This document shows, one piece after another, positions 781 to 64,000 of a stretch of DNA of 64,000 nucleotides. A model generated the notes under the pieces. It did no database searches and was not told where the DNA came from. It saw only the letters and a program-made list of their open reading frames with translations. The stretch comes from Candidatus Falkowbacteria bacterium (GTDB taxonomy: Bacteria; Patescibacteriota; Patescibacteriia; UBA11705): NCBI GenBank assembly GCA_003518055.1, contig DOZJ01000003.1, positions 2,046 to 66,045 of the forward strand. The letters are read 5' to 3'. The position numbers and the translations under genes are program-made. The first letter of the stretch is position 1, and every line of letters begins with the position of its first letter.

Positions 781-2787
781 ATGAAAGAACGCGAGTTACA
801 AGAAGAAAGCCGGCCTCAGGAGGAATTGTTTTTCCTTGGGGATTCCGGTGTTAAGCATGGTCATTTGACCTCAAACCATGATGAATATTGGGTTGAAGAA
901 GCTTATTTGCAGGGGCAGGGAGACAATGTCCATTATTTTGGAATTAATTTATCTAAACGCCGGTTGACCTTTTTTTTAATTATATTGTTTTTTGGCGTGT
1001 TTATTCTCTTTACGAGAAGCGCGTATCTTCAAGTGATTAAAGTCGATGAGTATCTGTCCATGGCTGAAAATAATCGAATCAGGGTTTATTATTTGCAGGC
1101 GCCGCGGGGCATTATTTATGATCGAAATCAAATTGCTTTGGTCCGAAATGTAGCTAATTTCTCATTATTCATCACCCCAGTTGATTTTCCTCATGATAAG
1201 GACAAGCAAGATGAGATGAAACAAATTTTAACTCAATATTTCAACAACCCAGTGGTGACTGAAGAATTCGATAAAATACTCAGTCTAACTCCGCAGCGAA
1301 AGGAATACTACCAGCCGCACGCGGTGATCAACTCAATCGATTATGATGACGCGATAAGATTGAGATTGGCGAGTGCGGATATGGCCGGAGTGTCGGTTGG
1401 GGTGACACATCAGCGTGAATATTTGATGGCGAGCGATAATGCGCAGGACTATTGGCATAACAGTTTGGCTCATGTTTTGGGTTATGTCGGCAAGGTAAGT
1501 CAGGATGAATATGATGAATTTGGCGATGATGGTTATCTCTTTAATGATATCATCGGCAAGAGCGGTTTGGAAAAATCCTATGAAACAATTCTGAGGGGGG
1601 TCTATGGCCGGAAACAAATCGAGGTTGATTCAATGGGAAAAGAAAAAAAGATTATCGCCCAAGACGAGATCGTCAAAGGCGAAAATTTGATTTTGTCAGT
1701 TGACTACAATATGCAGACCAAACTTGAAGAATTGATTCGGGCCACATTGATAAAGGAAAATTTAACCACCGGCGTCGGTGTGGTTCAAAATCCTCAAACC
1801 GGGGAAATTTTAGCTTTGGTCTCTTTGCCGAGTTTCAATAATAATGTTTTTGTGGCCGGGATTACGGCGGAAGAATATAATATTTTGCTTCAGGATGAAA
1901 ATAAACCGTTGTTCAATCGAGCGATTAGCGGAGAATATCCGTCGGGGTCAACAATTAAACCGATGATAGCGGCTGCGGCGCTGCAAGAGGGAATAATTAC
2001 CGTGGCTACGTCATTTCTCAGTACGGGCGGAATCAGGATTTATGAATGGTTTTTTCCGGATTGGCGCGCTGGAGGTCATGGAGTAACGGATGTAAAAAAA
2101 GCCTTGGCTGATTCGGTCAATACCTTTTTTTACATTATTGGCGGCGGTTACAATGATTTTGACGGTTTGGGTAATAAAAAAATGAAACAGTATGGCGAAT
2201 TGTTCGGTTTCAATCAAAAAACCGGTATTGATTTGCCGGGAGAAAGATCGGGCTTTTTGCCGGATGAAGATTGGAAACAGCTGGTCAAAAATGAACCGTG
2301 GTACATCGGAGATACTTATCACATGGCGATCGGCCAGGGCGATGTTTTGGCCACGCCGCTGCAAATTGCCAATTACACTTCGGCTATTGCTAACGGGGGA
2401 ACCCTGTACCGGCCGCGATTAATACATTCATTGATGAAAACCGAGACCGGCGATATTCAAGAAGTGCTGCCGCAAATAATCAGAACCGGTTTTATCGATC
2501 AGAAAAATTTGGACATTGTAAAACAAGGAATGCGGCAGTCGGTGATGATCGGCAGTTCGCGTTCTCTGAGCAATTTGCCCATTCCTGCCGCTGGAAAAAC
2601 CGGCACAGCCCAATGGGGTGGGGAAGATGATGTGCCGCACGCCTGGTTTACCTCGTTCGCGCCATATGACAATCCGGAGTTAACAGTGACAATATTAATT
2701 GAAGAAGGAAAAGAAGGCAGCGAAACAGCCGCCCCAATCGCCAGAGACTTTTATTCATGGTATTATAGTGAATATATAAACCGTTAA
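781..2787 (+). CDS. mrdA: Penicillin-binding protein 2 (elongasome transpeptidase)
   Basis: 668 aa with an N-terminal TM anchor and a PBP dimerisation region. Transpeptidase motifs are present: active-site S-x-x-K in ...YPSGSTIKPMIAAAAL... and a downstream K-T-G in ...AAGKTGTAQW... Confidence 0.85.
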   Translation: MKERELQEESRPQEELFFLGDSGVKHGHLTSNHDEYWVEEAYLQGQGDNVHYFGINLSKRRLTFFLIILFFGVFILFTRSAYLQVIKVDEYLSMAENNRIRVYYLQAPRGIIYDRNQIALVRNVANFSLFITPVDFPHDKDKQDEMKQILTQYFNNPVVTEEFDKILSLTPQRKEYYQPHAVINSIDYDDAIRLRLASADMAGVSVGVTHQREYLMASDNAQDYWHNSLAHVLGYVGKVSQDEYDEFGDDGYLFNDIIGKSGLEKSYETILRGVYGRKQIEVDSMGKEKKIIAQDEIVKGENLILSVDYNMQTKLEELIRATLIKENLTTGVGVVQNPQTGEILALVSLPSFNNNVFVAGITAEEYNILLQDENKPLFNRAISGEYPSGSTIKPMIAAAALQEGIITVATSFLSTGGIRIYEWFFPDWRAGGHGVTDVKKALADSVNTFFYIIGGGYNDFDGLGNKKMKQYGELFGFNQKTGIDLPGERSGFLPDEDWKQLVKNEPWYIGDTYHMAIGQGDVLATPLQIANYTSAIANGGTLYRPRLIHSLMKTETGDIQEVLPQIIRTGFIDQKNLDIVKQGMRQSVMIGSSRSLSNLPIPAAGKTGTAQWGGEDDVPHAWFTSFAPYDNPELTVTILIEEGKEGSETAAPIARDFYSWYYSEYINR

Positions 2788-3001
2788 ATTTTGGTGAGAT
2801 TTTTGAAAAATAATAATTAATAGTTATATGCAGTTTGATTTTTTTCAAATAATCAAGTATAATATATCTTGTTATAACCACCTGAAAAGATGTGTGTGAA
2901 CAGGCGGTTTTTTAATTAACTACAAATTACGAATCGGCTACAAATTTACAAGTTTTAATTTGTTGATTGGTAGTGAATCAGATTGTCGTAGAAAATTGTG
3001 T

Positions 3002-3460
3002 ATGAATGGAAAAATTTTGACACCGGAGGGTTTGGAAAAATTAAAAGCTGAACTCAAGGAATTGAAAGAAGTAAAATTGCCGGACATCATCGACAAAATT
3101 GAGAAGGCCAAAGAAATGGGCGATTTGTCCGAAAATGCCGAATACCACGATGCTAAGGACCAACAGGGTTTGATCAATGCCAGAATTGTTGAAATTGAGA
3201 ATATCTTGAAGATGGCAGTGGTGGAGGAAGCCACCAGCGGAGACCGAATCGGTGTCGGGTCAAGATTTACGGCCGAAGATGACCGCGGTAAACGCCAGGA
3301 TTTCACCATTGTCGGCTATAATGAAGCTGATCCGACTGCCGGCAAAATTTCCAATGAATCGCCAATGGGCGACGCGTTTATGGGGCGGCAGGCCGGAGAC
3401 TCGGTTGAGGTTGATGCACCAAAGGGTACCATAACGTTTAAAATTATTGATGTAAAGTAA
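3002..3460 (+). CDS. greA: Transcription elongation factor GreA
   Basis: MNGKILTPEGLEKLKAELKELKEV...GDLSENAEYHDAKDQQGLINARIVEIE is a typical GreA N-terminal coiled-coil, followed by an FKBP-like C-terminal domain. The ATG at 3002 was chosen within the longer ORF 2960-3460. Confidence 0.85.
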   Translation: MNGKILTPEGLEKLKAELKELKEVKLPDIIDKIEKAKEMGDLSENAEYHDAKDQQGLINARIVEIENILKMAVVEEATSGDRIGVGSRFTAEDDRGKRQDFTIVGYNEADPTAGKISNESPMGDAFMGRQAGDSVEVDAPKGTITFKIIDVK

Positions 3461-7477: not shown

Positions 7478-7740
7478 ATAAAGTGTCATACTACCCGCCT
7501 ACGTTACACCCTCAGCATGACAAGAGGGTTATGCTTCCCGCCTACGTTAAAACTCCGGCGGGCAGGCGAGAGCCCTGCCTACCGGCAGGCAGGCTCAGCA
7601 TGACAAGGAATTTGGGATTATGCTTCAAGAGCCTTAGTATGACAAGGAGTTTTGGGATTATATTTTCCGCCTACGTTAAAACTCCGGCGGGCCGGCAGCC
7701 TCGGTATGACAAAACGAGAAACTCCAGATAACAAAAATCG
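7478..7740. repeat. Intergenic palindromic repeat cluster
   Basis: Two copies of cccgcctacgttaaaactccggcgggc (7536-7565 and 7666-7695). Inverted copy of the gcctgccggtaggcagg palindrome seen at 18740 and 45470. Several catgacaag units. Small ORFs called here (7414-7731, 7618-7818, 7652-7849) are probably spurious. Confidence 0.6.
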
Positions 7741-9553: not shown

Positions 9554-9921
9554 GTGAGTGAAAAAGAAGTGTCTGCGCCAATTGCGGCGGAGATTTCATC
9601 TGAACAGAGTGTTGATCGATCAACTGACAAGGGAATAGAGGATATTGAAGCTCTGAGGGCGGATTTGCATCGTCTTTTCGCCAGTCGCCAAAAAAACGTG
9701 GCTAGAAAGCGACAACTTGCTGCTCAGACGGAATCGACCGCGCGCCGGAACATAAAGAACCGGGTTCATGGCAAATGATACGGTCGCTATGGAAGGTGGC
9801 TCCGCCTGACGCCAAGATGGCTCTGCTTGGTGAATTTTTGTTCAATCCTCGCGCGCTTCGCGAATGATATGAAAATGAACAGAATTTTCAGGAGAAAATG
9901 AAAAGACGGTGGACTGAATAA
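9554..9921 (+). pseudogene. Disrupted paralog of the 7062-7469 gene
   Basis: Same domain order as 7062-7469 but broken by a frame shift at the ATGA overlap (9775-9778) and an in-frame TGA at 9865-9867. The intact copy has AGA (Arg) at the TGA position. The conserved block resumes as YENEQNFQEKMKRRWTE. Confidence 0.55.
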
Positions 9922-18499: not shown

Positions 18500-18830
18500 T
18501 TGGTGGGGTAACAATAACTACCGAAGTTTGGCGGTCGGATGTTGGTTTTTTACAAAAATTAGACAGGGGTAACTGGAATGGCGGAAGTAAAGAGTAAAGA
18601 GCGAATAATAAAAATGGCGTAACTGTAACTACGGAATTAACTGTAACTACGGAAGTTTGGCAAGTCGGTTGGGTTTTTTACAAAAGTATGGCAGCAACAA
18701 TAACTACCCACCTACGCTCTTACTGTGTAGAAAGCTACGGCGCCTGCCTGCCGGTAGGCAGGGGCGCGGCGGAAGTTTGGCGGATGGGGAGGCAAAAGTT
18801 TGGCTATAACAATGAAAGTTTGATGATTTT
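18500..18830. repeat. Intergenic repeat cluster: copies of the ~28-nt GTAACTGTAACTACGGAAGTTTGGCGG family plus a ~130-bp segment duplicated at 45370-45500
   Basis: ggggtaacaataactaccgaagtttggcgg, gcgtaactgtaactacggaattaactgtaactacggaagtttggcaag. Also ...ggcagcaacaataactacccacctacgctcttactgtgt...gcctgcctgccggtaggcaggggcgcggcggaagtttggcgg, nearly identical to 45380-45500. Confidence 0.7.
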
Positions 18831-23304: not shown

Positions 23305-23530
23305 TTAAACTCGGAAATATTGGCTGGAATATTGGTCTTTTTTTATTTTAGCGATGTTTTTATCCACTTGATGATAAAACGCCGGATAATGCTGCCTGAC
23401 AATCATGCGGCCGCGGTATTTTTGATAATATGGCGGTTTTTGGATGTGGGCAATTTCATGAGCGAGGGTTCTGAGTAAAGAATTGATGCTTTTTGGTTTG
23501 TTAAATATAATTTTTTCGTTTTATTTATCC
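23305..23530 (-). pseudogene. 5-prime-truncated duplicate of the HExxH (DUF45/SprT-like) gene at 31002-31400
   Basis: ~190 bp (23318-23505) is ~95% identical to 31012-31200. It encodes ...SINSLLRTLAHEIAHIQKPPYYQKYRGRMIVRQHYPAFYHQVDKNIAKIKKDQYSSQYFRV* (stop at 23305-23307). The frame closes with TAA immediately upstream and has no ATG. Confidence 0.55.
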
Positions 23531-31001: not shown

Positions 31002-31400
31002 TCACGAGCGAAAATATTGGCTGAAGTACGGATCTTTTTTTATTTTGATGATGTTTTTATCGACTTGATGATAAAACGCCGGATAATGCTGTCTGACAAT
31101 CATGCGGCCGCGGTATTTTTGATAATATGGCGGTTTTTGGATGTGGGCAATTTCATGAGCGAGGGTTCTGAGTAAAGTATTAATGCTTTTGGGTTTATTG
31201 GTCTTTGGTGTCAGGACATCAAGCGCGATAGTCTTTTTTTGGAAATTGATATACCCCAAAATTAATCTCTTGCCGGTTGCTGATTGACGGCGGCTGATGA
31301 TTCGTAGTTTGTATTCATCATAGCCAAAAAGTTTTCTCACGATTTGGTGAAAAATCAACTCGACAAATTCAAGGTAGCGGTCATTTTTGTAGGCTGGCAT
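31002..31400 (-). CDS. HExxH zinc-metallopeptidase-like protein (DUF45/YgjP/SprT-like), 132 aa
   Basis: ...LRTLAHEIAHIQKPPYYQKYRGRMIVRQHYPAFYHQV... : HExxH followed by an H..(F/Y)(W/Y) segment as in DUF45/M48-like families. Confidence 0.5.
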   Translation of the reverse strand: MPAYKNDRYLEFVELIFHQIVRKLFGYDEYKLRIISRRQSATGKRLILGYINFQKKTIALDVLTPKTNKPKSINTLLRTLAHEIAHIQKPPYYQKYRGRMIVRQHYPAFYHQVDKNIIKIKKDPYFSQYFRS

Positions 31401-31429: not shown

Positions 31430-31530
31430 ACCCCGCTCAAGTTGGATCTGGCGGGGTAACTCTAACTACAAAAGTTTGGCGGGTTGGGTTAGTTTTTACA
31501 AAAGTTTGGCGAGGTAAGGTTGTAAATTGG
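31430..31530. repeat. Copies of the GTAACTNTAACTAC(A/G)GAAGTTTGGCGG repeat family
   Basis: ggcggggtaactctaactacaaaagtttggcgggttgggttagtttttacaaaagtttggcgagg. Confidence 0.6.
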
Positions 31531-34362: not shown

Positions 34363-34370
34363 AAACTACG

Positions 34371-34600
34371 AAAGTTAGATTGTCAGATGTGAATTAGGGT
34401 GTAACTATAACTACGGAAGTTTGGCGGGGTAACTGTAACGGCGGAAGTTTGGCGGGGTAACTGTAACTACGGAAGTTAGGCGGGTGTAACTGTAACTACG
34501 GAAGTAACTATAACTACGGAAGTTAGGCGGGGGTAACTGTAACTACGGAAGTAACTGTAACTACGGAAGTTAGGCGGGGTAAGTTAAGGTTTATTTAAGT
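34371..34600. repeat. Tandem array of seven or more directly abutting ~28-nt units, (G)GGTAACTGTAACTACGGAAGTT(T/A)GGCGG
   Basis: ggtgtaactataactacggaagtttggcgg / ggtaactgtaacggcggaagtttggcgg / ggtaactgtaactacggaagttaggcgg / gtgtaactgtaactacggaagtaactataactacggaagttaggcgg / gggtaactgtaactacggaagtaactgtaactacggaagttaggcgg. There are no unique spacers. Confidence 0.8.
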
Positions 34601-34976: not shown

Positions 34977-35105
34977 ATGGTTTATTATACCATATGGTGA
35001 TAAGTATGGTAAGATAACGGCTGATAAAATAATTATTGTTTGTGTGCGTTAACAGTTAAAAAATACTTATTTTAGCTAAACTTCCGTAGTTATCGTTATA
35101 CCCTA

Positions 35106-35134
35106 TTGACAAATTATAATAAGTATGATATAAT
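35106..35134 (+). promoter_or_regulatory. Consensus sigma70 promoter
   Basis: TTGACA (35106-35111), 17 nt, TATAAT (35129-35134). Confidence 0.5.
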
Positions 35135-35295
35135 GGCTAATCAAGCTGAGAAATTCATTGGCACATTGGCATTCATATATAAGACATTTGGATCTTTTTG
35201 TTGAGGGGTAACTGTAACTACGGAAGTATTACTACTAACGTTTTTACATTCATATAGTATATCGCTTGTCGTGATATTATATATAAAGACACCTC

Positions 35296-35324
35296 TTGAC
35301 AAAATGATTTAGATGTGATATAAT
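35296..35324 (+). promoter_or_regulatory. Consensus sigma70 promoter feeding a ~355-nt leader and the high-GC ORF
   Basis: TTGACA (35296-35301), aaatgatttagatgtga (17 nt), TATAAT (35319-35324). Confidence 0.55.
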
Positions 35325-35682
35325 GTTAAGCATGAACTTTGATATAACCATAACTACCAGACTACGCTGAAGCTACGTCTGGCACAGCGAAAGTTTAGCA
35401 GCAGCAAGAAGGCAGCAACTATTATTGAATTTGAGTTTGTGTCAACCTGAACTTGTTTCAGGTTCTACAAAATCAGATTCAATGATGGTTGTGAGATGTC
35501 TCCAACCTGTCCGGTGTAAATGGTCAAGACCAAAGAACTTCTTAAGCTTCACTCTGGTCCCCACATATCAAAACCGGGACCTATGAGCCGATTAGCGGCT
35601 GACAAAAGTGAAGTCGAAGATCAGCGGTCAAGACCAACCAAATCGTTTTTGGGGCACAGCCCCGCTTCATGGAGGAATCCAG

Positions 35683-36768
35683 ATGACCGAGCAGAGCACC
35701 CGCATCTCCACCCTCGTCGACTACGTCAACAACCACGGCACGTCGATCCGGCCCAACGTCATGGTCGAGTCCGATCTCGTCACCGGGCGCCCCTTCCCCG
35801 CGCGTTTCGCGCGGGTGCTGGTGGCGACCCAGCAGCTGTTCAACAACATCGACGTGAAGATGCTGCAGGAGCAGATTTTCAGGCTCAACGGCGAGCAGCG
35901 CGACGCCGGCAAGCCGATGCTCGACGGCAGCCACATCACGCTCAGCGAGGCGCTCGCGAACGCCGCGGCGGTCATCAAGTACCGCGACGCCATCGACCCG
36001 CTCCTGATCAACCGCGACGCGCGACTCACCGGCTTCCAGGTGTCCGAGCTGTCGCTCGACCCGACGGAGCTGGAGAAGCACCTCGCGGCAGGCGCCGGCA
36101 CGATCGACATGACCCGTGTCGCGGCCTGGTCCAAGAAGCAGAGCCTCTACGAGGCCGCGCTCGCGGCCCGCGCGGCGATCTTCGACGACCTGCGCAGCCG
36201 CGACGTCACCCCCGAGGAGCCCAACGGCTGGAGCCTGGCCCAGTGCCAGACGTCCGACTTCTGGGCGGCCTACGAGGAGGCGATCAAGGCCTTCGCGGTC
36301 GAGGTCGGCTTCGAGTGGGACGGCACGCCGACCACGCCGACTCCGCCGGTCTACCCCGTCACGGTCGTCCGCGTGTTCCACCGGGACGACATGTCGACCG
36401 GCTTCCGGTACATCCCCATGGTGGCGGACGGTCGGCACAAGGCGGCCGTGCAGATCCTCTGGGAGCAGCACGTCGAGTGGTCCCAGGAGCGCCAGAAGCC
36501 GCCGACGTTCTACCGCCGGTTCGTGTCGGAGGTCTGCGTCCCCCTGAACCTGCTGCAGGACATGCTCCGCAGCGAGGGCGTCAAGGACGACCGGCCGACG
36601 GTCGAGGCGAAGGTCTCGAGCCTCGCCGCGTCCCTGTCCGCCATTAGGGACAACCGGAACGCCGAGTACGAGGGCGGCCGGCGCAACCGCGACGAGGACA
36701 ACGACCGCCGCGGCAGCCGGGGCAAGCGCGGCAACACCCGCCAGAACCACCCCTACTCCCGCGGCTGA
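35683..36768 (+). CDS. Hypothetical 361-aa protein encoded at ~66% GC (GC3 >90%); probable foreign (horizontally acquired) gene
   Basis: GGAGG (35671-35675) then ATG at 35683. Codons are almost all G/C-ending (gtc gag tcc gat ctc gtc acc ggg cgc ccc...). C-terminal R/G/D/N-rich tail ...GGRRNRDEDNDRRGSRGKRGNTRQNHPYSRG. Overlapping ORFs on other frames and the other strand (35520-36647, 35581-36840 etc.) are high-GC artefacts. Confidence 0.6.
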   Translation: MTEQSTRISTLVDYVNNHGTSIRPNVMVESDLVTGRPFPARFARVLVATQQLFNNIDVKMLQEQIFRLNGEQRDAGKPMLDGSHITLSEALANAAAVIKYRDAIDPLLINRDARLTGFQVSELSLDPTELEKHLAAGAGTIDMTRVAAWSKKQSLYEAALAARAAIFDDLRSRDVTPEEPNGWSLAQCQTSDFWAAYEEAIKAFAVEVGFEWDGTPTTPTPPVYPVTVVRVFHRDDMSTGFRYIPMVADGRHKAAVQILWEQHVEWSQERQKPPTFYRRFVSEVCVPLNLLQDMLRSEGVKDDRPTVEAKVSSLAASLSAIRDNRNAEYEGGRRNRDEDNDRRGSRGKRGNTRQNHPYSRG

Positions 36769-36841
36769 CCGCAACCAACCCACCTCCCGATCTTTCCGTC
36801 TCGAATCTGAGGCATCACAAGCGAAAAACTCTACGAACATA

Positions 36842-36874
36842 AAGACCTAGCATTGCCTGGGTCTTTTTCGTTTT
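36842..36874 (+). terminator. Rho-independent terminator after the high-GC ORF
   Basis: aagacc-tagcattgcctg-ggtctt followed by tttcgtttt. Confidence 0.55.
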
Positions 36875-37743: not shown

Positions 37744-37892
37744 AAACAGACTTTAACGAAGTCTGCTTTTGTTTATATACTGTAACTGCGAAAGTATGGC
37801 CGTGGGGGCTACTTATACAAAATGAGTATAGTTAAAGTAAAAAGTGGAGGGAAAAGTTTTTACAAAAGTTTGGCGGGTGTAGCTGTAATAAA

Positions 37893-38348: not shown

Positions 38349-38449
38349 AGAGTTTTTACAAAGTGGTTATAGTTTTTTACAAAAGTATAACAGCAACTAC
38401 GAAAGCTTGACGGTTAGTGGCAGGGTTTTACAAAAGGTTGGCGGGGCGG

Positions 38450-44385: not shown

Positions 44386-45186
44386 TTGAACGACATTATG
44401 ATTGTATTTGCGGCGGTGGTCCCCCACCCGCCATTAATCATTCCCAGCTTGGGAAAAGATAATACAAAAAAATTGACTAAAACTCAAGAAGCTTTTGAAA
44501 TTTTAAAAAAAGAATTTGAGGCGGCTAAACCTGATACGGTTGTAATATTTTCACCGCATGGAGATATATATCCGGATGCGTTTACCATCAATACTTTGCC
44601 TGAATATGAGTTGAATTTTGAAGATTTCGGCGACTTTGAAACTCGGATGAATTTTGTCGGTGACCTAGGATTGATCAATCGATTCCGGGAACAAGTGGAA
44701 ACTACCCTACCGGTGGTGTTAAAATCAGAGTCGGTGCTTGATTATGGCGTGGGCATTCCATTGTATTCTCTCGCTCAGGCATATAAAAATTTCAAAATAA
44801 TGCCGATAAATTCTTCCTTACTTGACCTCGAACAGCATTTGAATTTTGGCGAGGAATTGAAAGAAGCGATATTTTCAAGTGAAAAAAAGGTGGCGATAAT
44901 CGCCTCAGCTGATTTGAGTCATCGGCTGTCAAAAAATGCTCCAGCCGGGTTTTCACCGAAAGCCAAGGATTTTGATAAAAAAATTATTCAGTATTTGAAA
45001 CAAAAAAAAGTAGATCAGATGATCCAATTCGATTCCCAGCTGCTCAAGGAGGCCGAAGAGTGCGGGTTGAGACCGATTATGATGTTGATGGGAGTGATTA
45101 GGAATATGAATTATGATTTTCAGGTTTTGAGTTATGAGTCGCCTTTTGGGGTGGGATATTTGGTGGGAGAGTGTTTGTTGAAGTAA
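44386..45186 (+). CDS. LigB-superfamily protein (class III extradiol dioxygenase subunit B-like / MEMO1-like)
   Basis: N-terminal ...IVFAAVVPHPPLIIP... and ...VVIFSPHGD... histidine motifs typical of PF02900-like folds. 266 aa. Confidence 0.45.
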   Translation: MNDIMIVFAAVVPHPPLIIPSLGKDNTKKLTKTQEAFEILKKEFEAAKPDTVVIFSPHGDIYPDAFTINTLPEYELNFEDFGDFETRMNFVGDLGLINRFREQVETTLPVVLKSESVLDYGVGIPLYSLAQAYKNFKIMPINSSLLDLEQHLNFGEELKEAIFSSEKKVAIIASADLSHRLSKNAPAGFSPKAKDFDKKIIQYLKQKKVDQMIQFDSQLLKEAEECGLRPIMMLMGVIRNMNYDFQVLSYESPFGVGYLVGECLLK

Positions 45187-45545
45187 CTGTAACTACGAAA
45201 GTTTGGCAGCAAGTAGATAGTTTTACGAAAATTAGGCGGGCGTAACTGTAACTACGGAATTAACTGTAACTACCCGCCTACGCTCTTACTTCCACCTACG
45301 CATAACGCTTATGCCTTCGCTAAAGCTATGGCATACAGGTCGGTGGACAGGGTGTAGAGCTACGGCGGGCGCGGCGGAAGTTTGGCAAGTCGGTTGGGTT
45401 TTTTACAAAAGTATGGCAGCAACAATAACTACCCACCTACGCTCTTACTGTGTGAGCTACGGCGCCTGCCTGCCGGTAGGCAGGGGCGCAGCGGAGGTTT
45501 GGCGGGGATTGGTTGCGTAGGGTTAATTCAGGGAAAAGAAAGGCG
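45187..45545. repeat. Intergenic repeat cluster: GTAACTGTAACTAC family units plus a ~130-bp near-identical copy of 18640-18790
   Basis: aactgtaactacgaaagtttggcagc..., gcgtaactgtaactacggaattaactgtaactacccgcctacgctcttac..., ggcggaagtttggcaagtcggttgggttttttacaaaagtatggcagcaacaataactacccacctacgctcttactgtgtgagctacggcgcctgcctgccggtaggcaggggcgcagcggaggtttggcgg. Confidence 0.7.
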
Positions 45546-50984: not shown

Positions 50985-53078
50985 ATGAGCAACGAACACA
51001 AATATTTTTGGGAAGAAGCAGTGGCCATTTTACGACGATTGCGGATTCGCACCAAACAAAAATATTTTGAACTTTGCAACATTGATAATCGATTTTCTCG
51101 AACCCCGGGATCTTTTTATCGTGACTGCTGGGTGGAAAAGGGTAAATGGCCCGGTTTCTTGGGATTCAAACCGTTTCGGACTGAGAAAACCAGTTACGTC
51201 ACGTGGGAAGAAGCAGCTGTCGCGGCCAGAAAATTGGGGTTTGCTACTGCGGATGATTATAAATTAGACTATGAAACAGATCCCAAATTGCACTCAAGCC
51301 CGCAAAAACTTTATAGATATGTATGGAAGAAAAATGGTGGCTGGCCCGGCTTTTTGGGTACAATCGGCAAAAAGAAACGAAAAAAATTTTACGCTACTTG
51401 GGCTGAAGCGTCAGCCGCTGCTCGGCGGTTAAAATTCAAAACCATTCGAGAGTATGTTAACGGTCGGAAACAAGATCCACGACTTCACTCTAAACCAAAC
51501 AAACTATATGCGGCTGAGTGGAAATCGAATGGCGGTTGGAAAGGATTTCTTGGAAATTCAGGCATAAGAAAACGACAGGATATTTATCCTACGTGGAATC
51601 TCGCTTCAGCTGCAGCCAAAAAACTGGGAATTAAACGAAGTGAAGATTATAGTAAAGTGTATAAAAAAGACCCCAAGCTGCCGGGCAACCCCAATCTCGC
51701 TTATGAGGATGTTTGGCAGAAGAATGGACGCTGGGCCGGATTCTTGGGGACAAGGACAAAACCTAATCCGGATGAAAAATACGCGACTTGGGAAGAAGCA
51801 TCGGCCGCTGCCAAAAAAATTGGGTTTATTTCGACTGATGATTATAACCAGCGATTTGCTGAAACTGATCCGAAATTGCCGGGAAAACCAAGTGACAAGT
51901 ATCGGAGTGTTTGGAAAAAAAACGGCCGTTGGATCGGTTACCTTGGTTTAAAAATGGTTTCACCCATCCGCGGTCATAAATATGTTACTTGGCATGAAGC
52001 ATCTAAGGCCGCTCAAAGATTAGGCATCAAAAATGGAATAGAATACAAACGTCGATACAAAAGTGATCCAAAGCTGCCGCTGAAGCCGGCCCAATTGTAT
52101 AAGATTGAATGGAAGAAGCGCGGCAGCATGGCTGGTTTTCTGGCACGAATATTTTCATATGTCAGATGGGAAGAAGCATCGGCCGCCGCTCGAAAATTGA
52201 ATATTCGGACCATCAAAGAATATCAGAAAAAACATTGTTTGGATCCACGATTGCCAAGCAATCCGGCCCATACTTACAAATCTGTCTGGGTGAAAAAAGG
52301 TCTTTGGCTGGGATTCCTCGGCAAAACTAAGGTGGAAAAATACGCTACTTGGGATGAGGCGGTGAAGGCGGTTAGACGATTAAGAATTACGTCATGCCGC
52401 GATTATCAAAATCGATACCGTTGTGACCCGAAGTTGCCGGTCAGACCATATATAAATTACAGAAACGTTTGGGTTTTGCTCGGTAAGTGGAGTGGTTTTA
52501 TCGGTCGGAAATCTCATTTTTATTCGACTTGGCAGGAAGCGTCAAAGGCCGCGATTGCTTTGGGCATCAAGACTCAAAAAGAGTACAAACAGAATTATTG
52601 GGATGATCCAAAATTACCAAGCACTCCAGATGTGGTTTATCAATCGTTGTGGAAAGTTAATGGCGGTTATTGGGGGTTTTTGGGTAAAACAAAGAAATAT
52701 CAATCTTGGTCAGAAGCGGCAAAAGCGGCGCGCAGTCTAAAAATCAGGAATAATCAAGAGTACAAAATAAAATACAAGTTGAATCCGAAATTACCGGCCT
52801 GTCCGGATCATTATTATAAAAATGATTGGAAAAGAAATGGCTGCTGGAACGGATTCCTCGGATTGACGCCAAAAAAATATTATGACACATGGATTGAAGC
52901 GTCGACTGCGACGATAACATTGGGAATTAAATATCAGCAAGAATATCGTCAACGATACAAACAAGATCCCCGGCTTCCGCCTAGCCCGGATTTAGTTTAC
53001 AAGGATGTCTGGGTTGATAACGGGCGCTGGCTGGGATTTCTCGGCCGGACAAATAGAATATTGAAAGCTCGCAAATAA
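50985..53078 (+). CDS. Basic 697-aa protein built from ~11 tandem ~60-aa repeats, consensus Y-x-T-W-E-E-A-S-x-A-A-R-K-L-G-I-K-T-x-x-E-Y-x(4)-K-x-D-P-K-L-P-x-x-P-x(3)-Y-x(3)-W-K-K-N-G-G-W-x-G-F-L-G
   Basis: Repeats visible by eye, e.g. YVTWEEAAVAARKLGFATADDYKLDYETDPKLHSSPQKLYRYVWKKNGGWPGFLG; YATWEEASAAAKKIGFISTDDYNQRFAETDPKLPGKPSDKYRSVWKKNGRWIGYLG; YQSWSEAAKAARSLKIRNNQEYKIKYKLNPKLPACPDHYYKNDWKRNGCWNGFLG. Confidence 0.55.
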   Translation: MSNEHKYFWEEAVAILRRLRIRTKQKYFELCNIDNRFSRTPGSFYRDCWVEKGKWPGFLGFKPFRTEKTSYVTWEEAAVAARKLGFATADDYKLDYETDPKLHSSPQKLYRYVWKKNGGWPGFLGTIGKKKRKKFYATWAEASAAARRLKFKTIREYVNGRKQDPRLHSKPNKLYAAEWKSNGGWKGFLGNSGIRKRQDIYPTWNLASAAAKKLGIKRSEDYSKVYKKDPKLPGNPNLAYEDVWQKNGRWAGFLGTRTKPNPDEKYATWEEASAAAKKIGFISTDDYNQRFAETDPKLPGKPSDKYRSVWKKNGRWIGYLGLKMVSPIRGHKYVTWHEASKAAQRLGIKNGIEYKRRYKSDPKLPLKPAQLYKIEWKKRGSMAGFLARIFSYVRWEEASAAARKLNIRTIKEYQKKHCLDPRLPSNPAHTYKSVWVKKGLWLGFLGKTKVEKYATWDEAVKAVRRLRITSCRDYQNRYRCDPKLPVRPYINYRNVWVLLGKWSGFIGRKSHFYSTWQEASKAAIALGIKTQKEYKQNYWDDPKLPSTPDVVYQSLWKVNGGYWGFLGKTKKYQSWSEAAKAARSLKIRNNQEYKIKYKLNPKLPACPDHYYKNDWKRNGCWNGFLGLTPKKYYDTWIEASTATITLGIKYQQEYRQRYKQDPRLPPSPDLVYKDVWVDNGRWLGFLGRTNRILKARK

Positions 53079-61225: not shown

Positions 61226-61289
61226 AAAACTCCAGAAAGTGGAGATTTTTTTATTTACAAGAAAAACCAACGACGAATAGCTGATGTAT

Positions 61290-61515
61290 GCTTTTAAAAG
61301 CGTGCCGGTGACAGCAGTGGTCATCCTTCGATCCTGCCGATCGAGAACCTTCCGCCTTCACTATCGTTTCGGCGGACAAGCAGGGTGACAAAATGTTTTA
61401 TGCACGCTTCGACCATTCGACTAGGCTCGGGGCAAGCTTGGCGTCCCGGATAAACCAACGGGGCAGGTATGGTGACATACGTTCCCCGTGTTATGCTGGT
61501 GGTTTTCATTCGGAT
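61290..61515. ncRNA. GC-elevated (~55%) 220-nt segment between convergent genes; candidate structured RNA of unknown class
   Basis: Hairpins include cgggg-caggtatggtgacatacgtt-ccccg and ccgcc-ttcactatcgttt-cggcgg. The only ORF here (61321-61509, minus strand) translates to low-complexity junk. Strand and boundaries are undetermined. Confidence 0.25.
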
Positions 61516-63915: not shown

Positions 63916-64000
63916 TCGTCGAGATGAAGGTTTTGGCTGATATTTTCGGCTTCAGCTTCATATTTTTTTAGGCAGTCTTCAGAGCAGAATTTCACTCCGT

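Follow-up and report, generated by a model that had tools for sequence, protein, structure and literature searches.

What kind of element is the short repeat that fills the space in front of gltX in a Candidatus Falkowbacteria genome, and does its resemblance to a CRISPR (clustered regularly interspaced short palindromic repeats) array mean anything? The repeat lies in a stretch of 64,000 nucleotides (nt) of contig DOZJ01000003.1 (assembly GCA_003518055.1, forward-strand positions 2,046 to 66,045), called here the window, and a first-pass annotation had described it as a genome-specific element of the kind of repetitive extragenic palindromes (REP), bacterial interspersed mosaic elements (BIME) or miniature inverted-repeat transposable elements (MITE). 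The 28-nt unit represents one subfamily, X, of monomers that measure about 27-30 nt and are not palindromic, and X, together with a second subfamily, Y, constitutes a lineage-specific, polar monomer family that is found in tandem runs and carries hairpin insertions at a fixed position. With regard to its nature, we lean slightly towards a selfish or neutral polar mini-satellite that is also a target of hairpin elements and has no dedicated cellular function.

The main array (34401-34578, + strand) consists of seven X units that abut head to tail with zero spacers, as had been proposed for seven or more copies, and it is located between the stop of a PDDEXK_3 (GxxExxY) gene and the start of gltX, both encoded on the − strand. 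Five of the units are full (28-29 nt), reading GTAACTRTAACTACGGAAGTTWGGCGGG, and the other two are truncated to 18 nt, reading GTAACTGTAACTACGGAA. Tandem Repeats Finder (TRF) gives periods of 28, 18 and 47 nt, the last one corresponding to a higher-order dimer (29+18) with 2.7 copies and 93% matches. This higher-order repeat is made up by the last five units and points to local tandem duplication, the whole array being an amplification of X only. The 28-mer has 8 matches at three or fewer mismatches and the 20-mer core has 15, with 0.00 expected in both cases (100 shuffles). The window is the reverse complement of positions 208-64207 of ENA ERZ5996431 NODE_7, a contig from a groundwater metagenome, and is also present on contigs of JGI 3300009031 and ENA ERZ909580. 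Taking into account that the array sequence is identical across the ENA (MEGAHIT), JGI and metaSPAdes assemblies (loci L001 and L002 among them), and that Logan short-read contigs end within it, the array is real and repetitive, and not an artefact.

X can be written as GTAACTGTAAC-TAC-GGAAGTTTGGCGG and Y as GGTTTTT-TAC-AAAAGTWTGGCRG (whole unit TTTTTTACAAAAGTWTGGCRG; also given as GGTTTTTTAC-AAAAGTWTGGCRG). The core TAC-RR-AAGTWTGGCRG is conserved in both, the 11 nt in front of it being different. In all the intergenic regions read, X and Y typically alternate via a GT-rich linker of about 10 nt, and the order X-linker-Y is found at 18508, 18637, 31456, 45183 and 45260, as well as at positions 836-968 of the left-flank locus L087, about 8.4 kb left of the window. 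When the window and its flanks are searched with a profile built from eight units (nhmmer), 22 copies are recovered at E<0.01, every one of them intergenic, in agreement with the first-pass annotation. The monomer runs and their nested modules add up to about 1.3 kb, equivalent to 2% of the window and around 16% of its intergenic DNA, and their neighbours are housekeeping genes: alr/ftsQ, an M23-peptidase gene, gltX (encoding the glutamyl-tRNA synthetase GluRS), NUDIX/WecG and LigB/Memo-like/priA.

The monomers do not behave as structured elements. Compared with dinucleotide shuffles, the array folds worse on both strands (z +2.5 on +, +1.6 on −), and a single X unit reaches −3.8 kcal/mol, with a z of −0.3. 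When the repeat loci were scanned for promoters and terminators, no sigma-70-like promoter or intrinsic terminator was seen to be created by the units. In Rfam, at the gathering threshold, no family matches the repeats and no CRISPR-DR entry is found across the whole window, and at a permissive E-value only noise was obtained from 7.4-7.85, 34.3-35.6 and 45.1-45.65 kb and from L087 6.9-7.45 kb; a known RNA family was ruled out on the basis of these searches.

The second property that defines the family is its polarity. It had been suggested that copies occur in both orientations, which is overstated, since 21 of the 22 are on the + strand (binomial p = 1e-5), the copy at 35076-35098 being the only one on the − strand. 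GC skew is positive across the whole window, the + strand thus being the G-rich one, and this sign, together with the location of most genes on +, leads us to take + as the leading strand. The polarity is independent of transcription: units are found both between − strand genes (31.4, 34.4 and 38.4 kb) and between + strand genes (18.5 and 45.2 kb). The Y units in the right-hand continuation are likewise on the G-rich strand, and the intergenic CC(G/A)CCTACG module starts are on + in seven cases out of seven.

The third property is the presence, in several units, of GC-rich hairpin modules (31-102 nt) located exactly after TAC. These modules fold better than their shuffles (z −1.3 to −2.2), and those carried by X units have common termini (5' CCRCCTACGCT..., 3' ...GCRCRGC) and different interiors, some of which hold a further nested CCTGCCNNCCGGNNGGCAGG hairpin. 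Two composites of the 18.6 and 45.2 kb loci, A and B, are one and the same 168-nt mosaic, 26.7 kb apart, with identity blocks of 79 nt at 100% and 51 nt at 96%. They differ by a 3-nt indel, two substitutions and an exact 102-nt insert in B, which falls between ...TAACTGTAACTAC and GGAAGTTTGGC... (CTAC before it, GG after it), so that A and B look like the empty and the filled state of one site. The occurrence of this composite at both loci suggests inter-locus copying; the composite B locus is the same in three other assemblies except for one single-nucleotide polymorphism (SNP). Moreover, the units at 34429 (u2) and 18568 carry GGCGGAAG, which is the right-end junction of the long form, and this footprint in short units indicates that at least some of them arose from long ones by deletion. 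The coordinates of all these features are collected in Table 1.

Table 1. Repeat units, composites, hairpin modules and related elements; positions are those of the window unless a flanking locus is named.
Feature	Position	Strand	Length and context
Partial X unit AACTACGAAAGTTAG	34364-34378	+	15 nt; abuts gltX ATG (34362) directly; profile E 0.25
Array unit u1	34401 (start)	+	28 nt
Array unit u2	34429 (start)	+	28 nt; GGC replacing TAC
Array unit u3	34457 (start)	+	29 nt
Array unit u4	34486 (start)	+	18 nt; truncated
Array unit u5	34504 (start)	+	29 nt
Array unit u6	34533 (start)	+	18 nt; truncated
Array unit u7	34551 (start)	+	28 nt
Linker and degenerate Y unit (GTAAGTTAAGG TTTATTTAAGT...)	34579-34600	+	closing element of the array; overlap with the PDDEXK_3 open reading frame at its 3' end; read from the sequence
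X, 11-nt GT-rich linker, Y, X' with GGCGGAAG variant	18508-18588	+	begins 13 nt past the alr stop
Composite A: short x, X, linker, Y, X split by a hairpin module after CTAC	18616-18783	+	module of 63 nt at 18708-18770
Two degenerate monomers CAAAAGTTTGGCTA, TAACAATGAAAGTTTGATGA	18793-18826	+	upstream of ftsQ; weak profile matches
X, linker, Y	31456-31513	+	M23-peptidase stop (− strand) on one side, its terminator hairpin (31431-31459) on the other
Sole inverted X copy	35076-35098	−	profile match
Solo left part of X, exact core	35208-35227	+	20 nt; downstream of perfect promoter 35106-35134
X-like unit split after CTAC by a hairpin module	35343-35402	+	module of 31 nt at 35358-35388; downstream of promoter 35296-35324
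Diverged X-like (37779-37800) and canonical Y (37857-37877)	37779-37877	+	between convergent genes, after terminator 37747-37765
Run of Y, Y, X-like, Y	38353-38445	+	between NUDIX start and WecG stop (− strand genes)
X, linker, Y	45183-45241	+	first GTAAC of X provides the TAA stop of the LigB/Memo-like gene
Composite B: composite A plus exact 102-nt hairpin module	45239-45505	+	modules at 45274-45375 (102 nt) and 45433-45492 (60 nt)
Module	18708-18770	+	63 nt; in X of composite A
Module	35358-35388	+	31 nt; in X-like unit
Module	45274-45375	+	102 nt; in composite B
Module	45433-45492	+	60 nt; in composite B
Module	L087		51 nt; splits a Y unit at TTTTTTAC
Cluster of related GC-rich hairpin modules	7483-7710	+	CCGCCTACG starts, CCTGCCTACCGGCAGGCAGG hairpin, CCTGCC hairpin as in the nested modules, five YAGYATGACAAG motifs
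tnpA-less IS200-type derivative	61246-61512	+	about 265 nt; directly after TTATTTAC, between convergent genes

All the dispersed sites that had been listed beforehand are real (18508-18661, 31456-31513, 35076-35098, 35208-35227, 37779-37877, 38353-38445 and 45183-45505); the number of intergenic regions with copies inside the window is seven and not eight, since the copies at 35.08 and 35.2 kb belong to one region. At 37.8 and 38.4 kb the copies have diverged, and most of them belong to the Y type. A restriction of the copies to the window had been named in advance as a refutation of the first-pass annotation, and the outcome is in favour of the latter, since copies also occur outside: two X units and one Y unit are found on the left (L087 836-968), and Y-type units on the right (L097 4395-4500, reverse complement). 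As for the claim that the unit often sits right after a stop codon, it is correct at 45183, where the TAA is inside the first GTAAC, and at 18508; other copies follow a terminator T-tract, which directly precedes those at 37779 and at L087:836. The public gene call for 44386-45186 uses a different start codon.

The family is specific to this lineage. The exact 20-mer core has no match in 185,579 species genomes or in JGI metagenome contigs, the 20-mer with one ambiguous base has none in viral contigs, and no match to the repeat was obtained by blastn in plasmid and phage collections; the other loci fetched from bacteria of the candidate phyla radiation (CPR) hold no comparable arrays. The nearest species genome is that of Falkowbacteria CG10_big_fil_rev_8_21_14_0_10_39_11 (locus L006), with a GltX 75% identical, and in a collection of 5.8 billion proteins the interval from 75% to 100% GltX identity is empty. 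L006 is colinear with the window at about 29-42 kb, has no X unit across 21 kb of syntenic DNA, and has syntenic spacers that are shorter than those of the window and contain only faint Y-like TTTACAAAGT motifs. In its M23-peptidase spacer the terminator hairpin is kept, and the X-linker-Y group, which in the window stands between the stop and the hairpin, is absent. The description of the repeat as genome-specific and interspersed is thus borne out by the missing core matches and by the absence of X units from L006. The first-pass annotation had also seen in this stretch a recombination-prone accessory region, which is partly correct: PDDEXK_3 and the array are missing from the syntenic site of L006, behaving as an indel, but the neighbouring high-GC gene is present and syntenic there, and the repeats are otherwise located between housekeeping genes.

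The site in L006 that corresponds to PDDEXK_3 and the array is occupied by a two-hairpin element (9790-9870, upstream of gltX), in which the unit found at 7526-7600 of the window, within the cluster at 7483-7710, is conserved with flipped hairpin loops. No Rfam match was obtained for this cluster, and when metagenomes were scanned for the conserved two-hairpin pattern, only the L006 species itself was recovered. With respect to gltX expression, no Shine-Dalgarno sequence is seen in the window (34363-34400) or in L006 (9960-9988). L006 has a TATAAT box about 10 nt before the gltX ATG, suggesting a leaderless mRNA, and the partial repeat unit occupies the position of this box in the window, where no gltX promoter is detectable; gltX may therefore rely on read-through from the PDDEXK_3 promoter (35012-34984, −).

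Positions 34395-34425 and 35075-35105, each consisting of an X unit with a TAGGGT prefix, form a 31-nt inverted pair (90% complementary), which brackets the remainder of the array and the single-copy PDDEXK_3 gene with its promoter. That PDDEXK_3 and these terminal inverted repeats make up a mobile element was considered and found to be unsupported, the gene having no close paralogue and one distant homologue (41% identity), near which there are no X units.

A transposase partner like the REP-associated tyrosine transposases (RAYT) had been contemplated for the unit, and a Y1 (PF01797) gene does exist just outside the window, in an IS200-type insertion sequence (IS) located 100-700 nt beyond position 64000 (L091 2670-3290, with tnpA at 2766-3191). 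This copy has classic subterminal hairpins, CACCAGC-GTAA-GCTGGTG, which are unlike the unit, and NODE_7 breaks inside it. No RAYT gene is found in the approximately 95 kb examined, the nearby Y1_Tnp being of the IS200 type with end hairpins of its own, and the IS ends have no similarity to the X/Y loci (BLAST, word size 7). The tnpA-less derivative at 61246-61512 matches the IS at its left end (77% over 57 nt), and its right end is also recognisable; inside it there is a CCGCC...GGCGG hairpin, similar to those found at 7.5 kb and in L006. Two different right-hand junctions of the IS copy appear among the assemblies (L091, L097, L098), one on the AhpC side and the other on the TsaD side, and GC skew flips sign across the copy in L097, which indicates that there are at least two IS copies or that an IS-mediated inversion has occurred.

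To which known class, then, does the family belong? By analogy, it is closest in behaviour to the intergenic mini-satellites of the MIRU (mycobacterial interspersed repetitive unit) type and to the mosaics formed by BOX elements and neisserial intergenic mosaic elements (NIME), differing from them in unit length, structure and chromosome-strand polarity. As in MIRU and other variable-number tandem repeat mini-satellites, the units are direct and non-palindromic, both dispersed and arranged head to tail, and intergenic between housekeeping genes; contact with stop and start codons and the predominance of one orientation, both known from MIRUs, are seen here as well. In contrast to MIRUs, the unit measures 18-29 nt instead of about 46-101 nt, there are no small open reading frames (ORFs) coupling the flanking genes, polarity follows the chromosome strand and not the operon, and there are two alternating subfamilies with nested hairpin inserts. 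Variation in copy number between samples, which would be expected of a MIRU-like repeat, is likewise absent, three loci being identical or differing by 1 SNP among ENA, JGI and Logan, a weak test given that all of them represent one population. BOX of Streptococcus pneumoniae and the neisserial NIME/dRS3 are comparable as modular intergenic mosaics in which one module is tandemly amplified and modules recombine, but their modules contain inverted repeats or are predicted to adopt a stable structure, features that are absent from X and Y, which have a strict polarity.

The REP/BIME/MITE-like assignment of the unit has to be abandoned, because it has neither a palindrome nor terminal inverted repeats. 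Like REP/BIME with their RAYT (TnpA_REP), the family is short, extragenic, genome-specific and associated with Y1/HUH, and a conserved tetranucleotide is found beside GC-rich hairpins, CTAC in the nested modules and GTAG in E. coli. Unlike them, the 28-nt unit has no stem-loop, its copies are direct instead of alternating in inverted orientation, and the nearby Y1 is an ordinary IS200-type tnpA; what is REP-like is confined to the GC-rich modules nested in some units, which are the only parts that fold. The terminal inverted repeats and target-site duplication of a MITE are also lacking, with the one inverted pair bracketing a single-copy PDDEXK_3. The modules, and only they, bring to mind the tnpA-less (PATE-like) derivatives of the IS200/IS605 family. 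The insertion point of members of this family is 3' to a tetra- or pentanucleotide that depends on the element (TTAC in the case of IS608); they excise precisely, cause no target duplication and have a preference for the lagging-strand template (PMC5027513). The modules, in the same way, lie 3' of C/TTAC with no target duplication, offer a precise empty site in the clean A/B pair and are found on one strand, the presumed lagging-strand template, and an IS200 copy and a derivative of it are present locally. On the other hand, their hairpins differ from those at the left and right ends of the resident IS, and the X/Y host monomers have no counterpart in the family.

On these grounds, the following course of events is proposed for a selfish or neutral mini-satellite. 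Arrays would grow locally by slipped-strand or unequal-crossover duplication, and composite blocks would be copied between loci by recombination or gene conversion anchored on GGAAGTTTGGC. The position just after TAC would be the entry or exit point for the GC-rich modules (31, 51, 60/63 and 102 nt), which may behave like tnpA-less IS200/IS605 derivatives, moving as single-stranded DNA (ssDNA) and entering 3' of CTAC/TTAC. A strand-specific process, or selection against inverted copies, could be the source of the uniform polarity. Assembly breaks, changes in the distance between cistrons (as in front of gltX, where the promoter region seen in the relative has been replaced) and rearrangement hot spots would be by-products. 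It has to be noted that several observations weigh against this proposal: mobility is not seen directly, the three loci compared across samples being invariant but for 1 SNP; a precise deletion would account equally well for the filled/empty pair formed by A and B; TAC does not precede the modules at 7538 and 7667; the end hairpins of the IS200 copy are unlike both the module hairpins and the X/Y units; the connection of polarity with replication is drawn from GC skew only, over about 85-95 kb of one genome and a single GC-skew arm; and the 16-nt core conserved in diverged monomers could reflect selection of a binding site.

This last point leads to the alternatives. If the monomers were protein-binding sites, either a polar motif linked to chromosome organisation or replication or the operator of a regulon, with arrays as high-avidity sites, the persistence of the TAC, AAGT and GGC blocks of the core across diverged X and Y would be explained, as would the strict strand bias independent of the direction of transcription and the Y-like TTTACAAAGT in a syntenic spacer of the 75%-identity relative. 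Many copies are, however, downstream of genes or terminators and not at promoters, X units are missing from every syntenic site of the relative, and none of the proteins encoded in the window is a conspicuous candidate for binding. KOPS and Chi are polar 8-mers also found within genes, whereas X and Y never are, and we consider a binding function rather unlikely. Slightly better placed, yet unlikely too, is the possibility that the X/Y units are themselves moved as ssDNA by a Y1 (HUH) transposase, in the manner of REP/RAYT or of IS200-derived miniatures, and are not mere targets. The uniform polarity on the presumed lagging-strand template, the Y1 gene adjoining the window with a derivative inside it, and the richness of the units in TAAC, CTAC and TTAC, resembling the cleavage and target sites of IS200/IS605 (IS608, PMC5027513), would be in agreement with it. 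Against it stand the lack of similarity between the IS ends and the X/Y loci, the lack of a RAYT gene and the tandem higher-order structure, which favours duplication over independent insertions. Furthermore, Y1 transposases recognise subterminal hairpins, and the units have no hairpin.

An action of the array as RNA is quite improbable. Such a role could be that of a + strand protein-sponge small RNA (CsrA/Rsm-like) or of a − strand C-rich, rut-like leader of gltX, and it would find some basis in the seven ACGGAAG motifs, all of which are predicted to place ACGGA in a 5-nt loop closed by a weak UAACU/AGUUA stem, in the C-rich, G-poor and unstructured − strand RNA, and in the position of the array in the PDDEXK_3-gltX intercistronic region, where no separate gltX promoter is detected. 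On the + strand, though, the array is not flanked by a promoter or a terminator, as a whole it is less structured than shuffles, and the units vary between sense and antisense with respect to the flanking genes, so that their transcription would not yield a consistent RNA; the GGA motifs of a Csr/Rsm sponge are present, but no Rfam family is matched and no csrA gene is found in the region examined. There is next to no chance that the array is a degenerate or unusual CRISPR array, or an assembly artefact. The repeat length of 28 nt, typical of CRISPR repeats, the head-to-tail layout and the breaking of short-read contigs inside the array could suggest it, but three independent assemblers give an identical sequence, the units abut without unique spacers, solo units are dispersed, and there is no leader and no match to CRISPR-DR in Rfam or to any CRISPR repeat family. 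Pfam annotation of the window and its flanks shows no cas gene (Cas1, Cas2, effector), no integrase and no RAYT, so CRISPR, already dismissed by the first-pass annotation, is ruled out.

Some other features of the region have been recorded. The high-GC gene (about 64%, 35520-36866), with no Pfam family, is probably on the wrong strand in public gene calls: a + strand ORF (35608-36768, 386 aa) is 39% identical to the L006 counterpart (59% positives, E 8e-77), whereas the − strand ORF (419 aa) aligns as low-complexity sequence only (E 9e-20). A terminator (36841-36866) and two perfect 12/12 extended −10 promoters (35106-35134 and 35296-35324) are found near this gene, all on the + strand. At L087 7036-7320, about 1.9-2.2 kb left of the window, a separate 95-nt unit is repeated three times in tandem (TRF score 456), each copy having two hairpins, TCCCGCACTAAAGTGCGGGGA and GGGCTTCAGCCC, with no Rfam match. 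A 191-nt duplicate (23312-23502 and 31009-31199, 92% identity) places a fragment of a 132-aa gene (31002-31400) in the long spacer before a 2317-aa gene. Finally, positions 50985-53078 hold internal coding repeats of a 697-aa protein (INT_rpt in the public annotation; repeat families D4, D5 and D12), unrelated to the intergenic repeat.

Genomes of CPR bacteria (Patescibacteria) are small and streamlined, and in the literature no description was found of interspersed repeats in Falkowbacteria or other CPR bacteria. In practical terms, these repeats explain the fragmentation of short-read assemblies of this genome at these sites, and annotators should be warned that 28-nt arrays of this sort are not CRISPRs. 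No new molecular machine is indicated. A more ambitious idea, to which we give a low probability, is that the arrays are a strand-specific feature of this CPR lineage, either intergenic 'landing pads' that would offer C/TTAC targets on the lagging-strand template and so steer single-stranded Y1/HUH hairpin elements off genes, or a replication-oriented protein-binding motif that those elements would exploit. Returning to the polar mini-satellite that we favour, its strict polarity and its clean filled/empty site make an ssDNA mechanism directly testable and, if polarity tracks replication genome-wide, the family would be a compact natural case of strand-specific, probably ssDNA, repeat dynamics in an uncultured organism.

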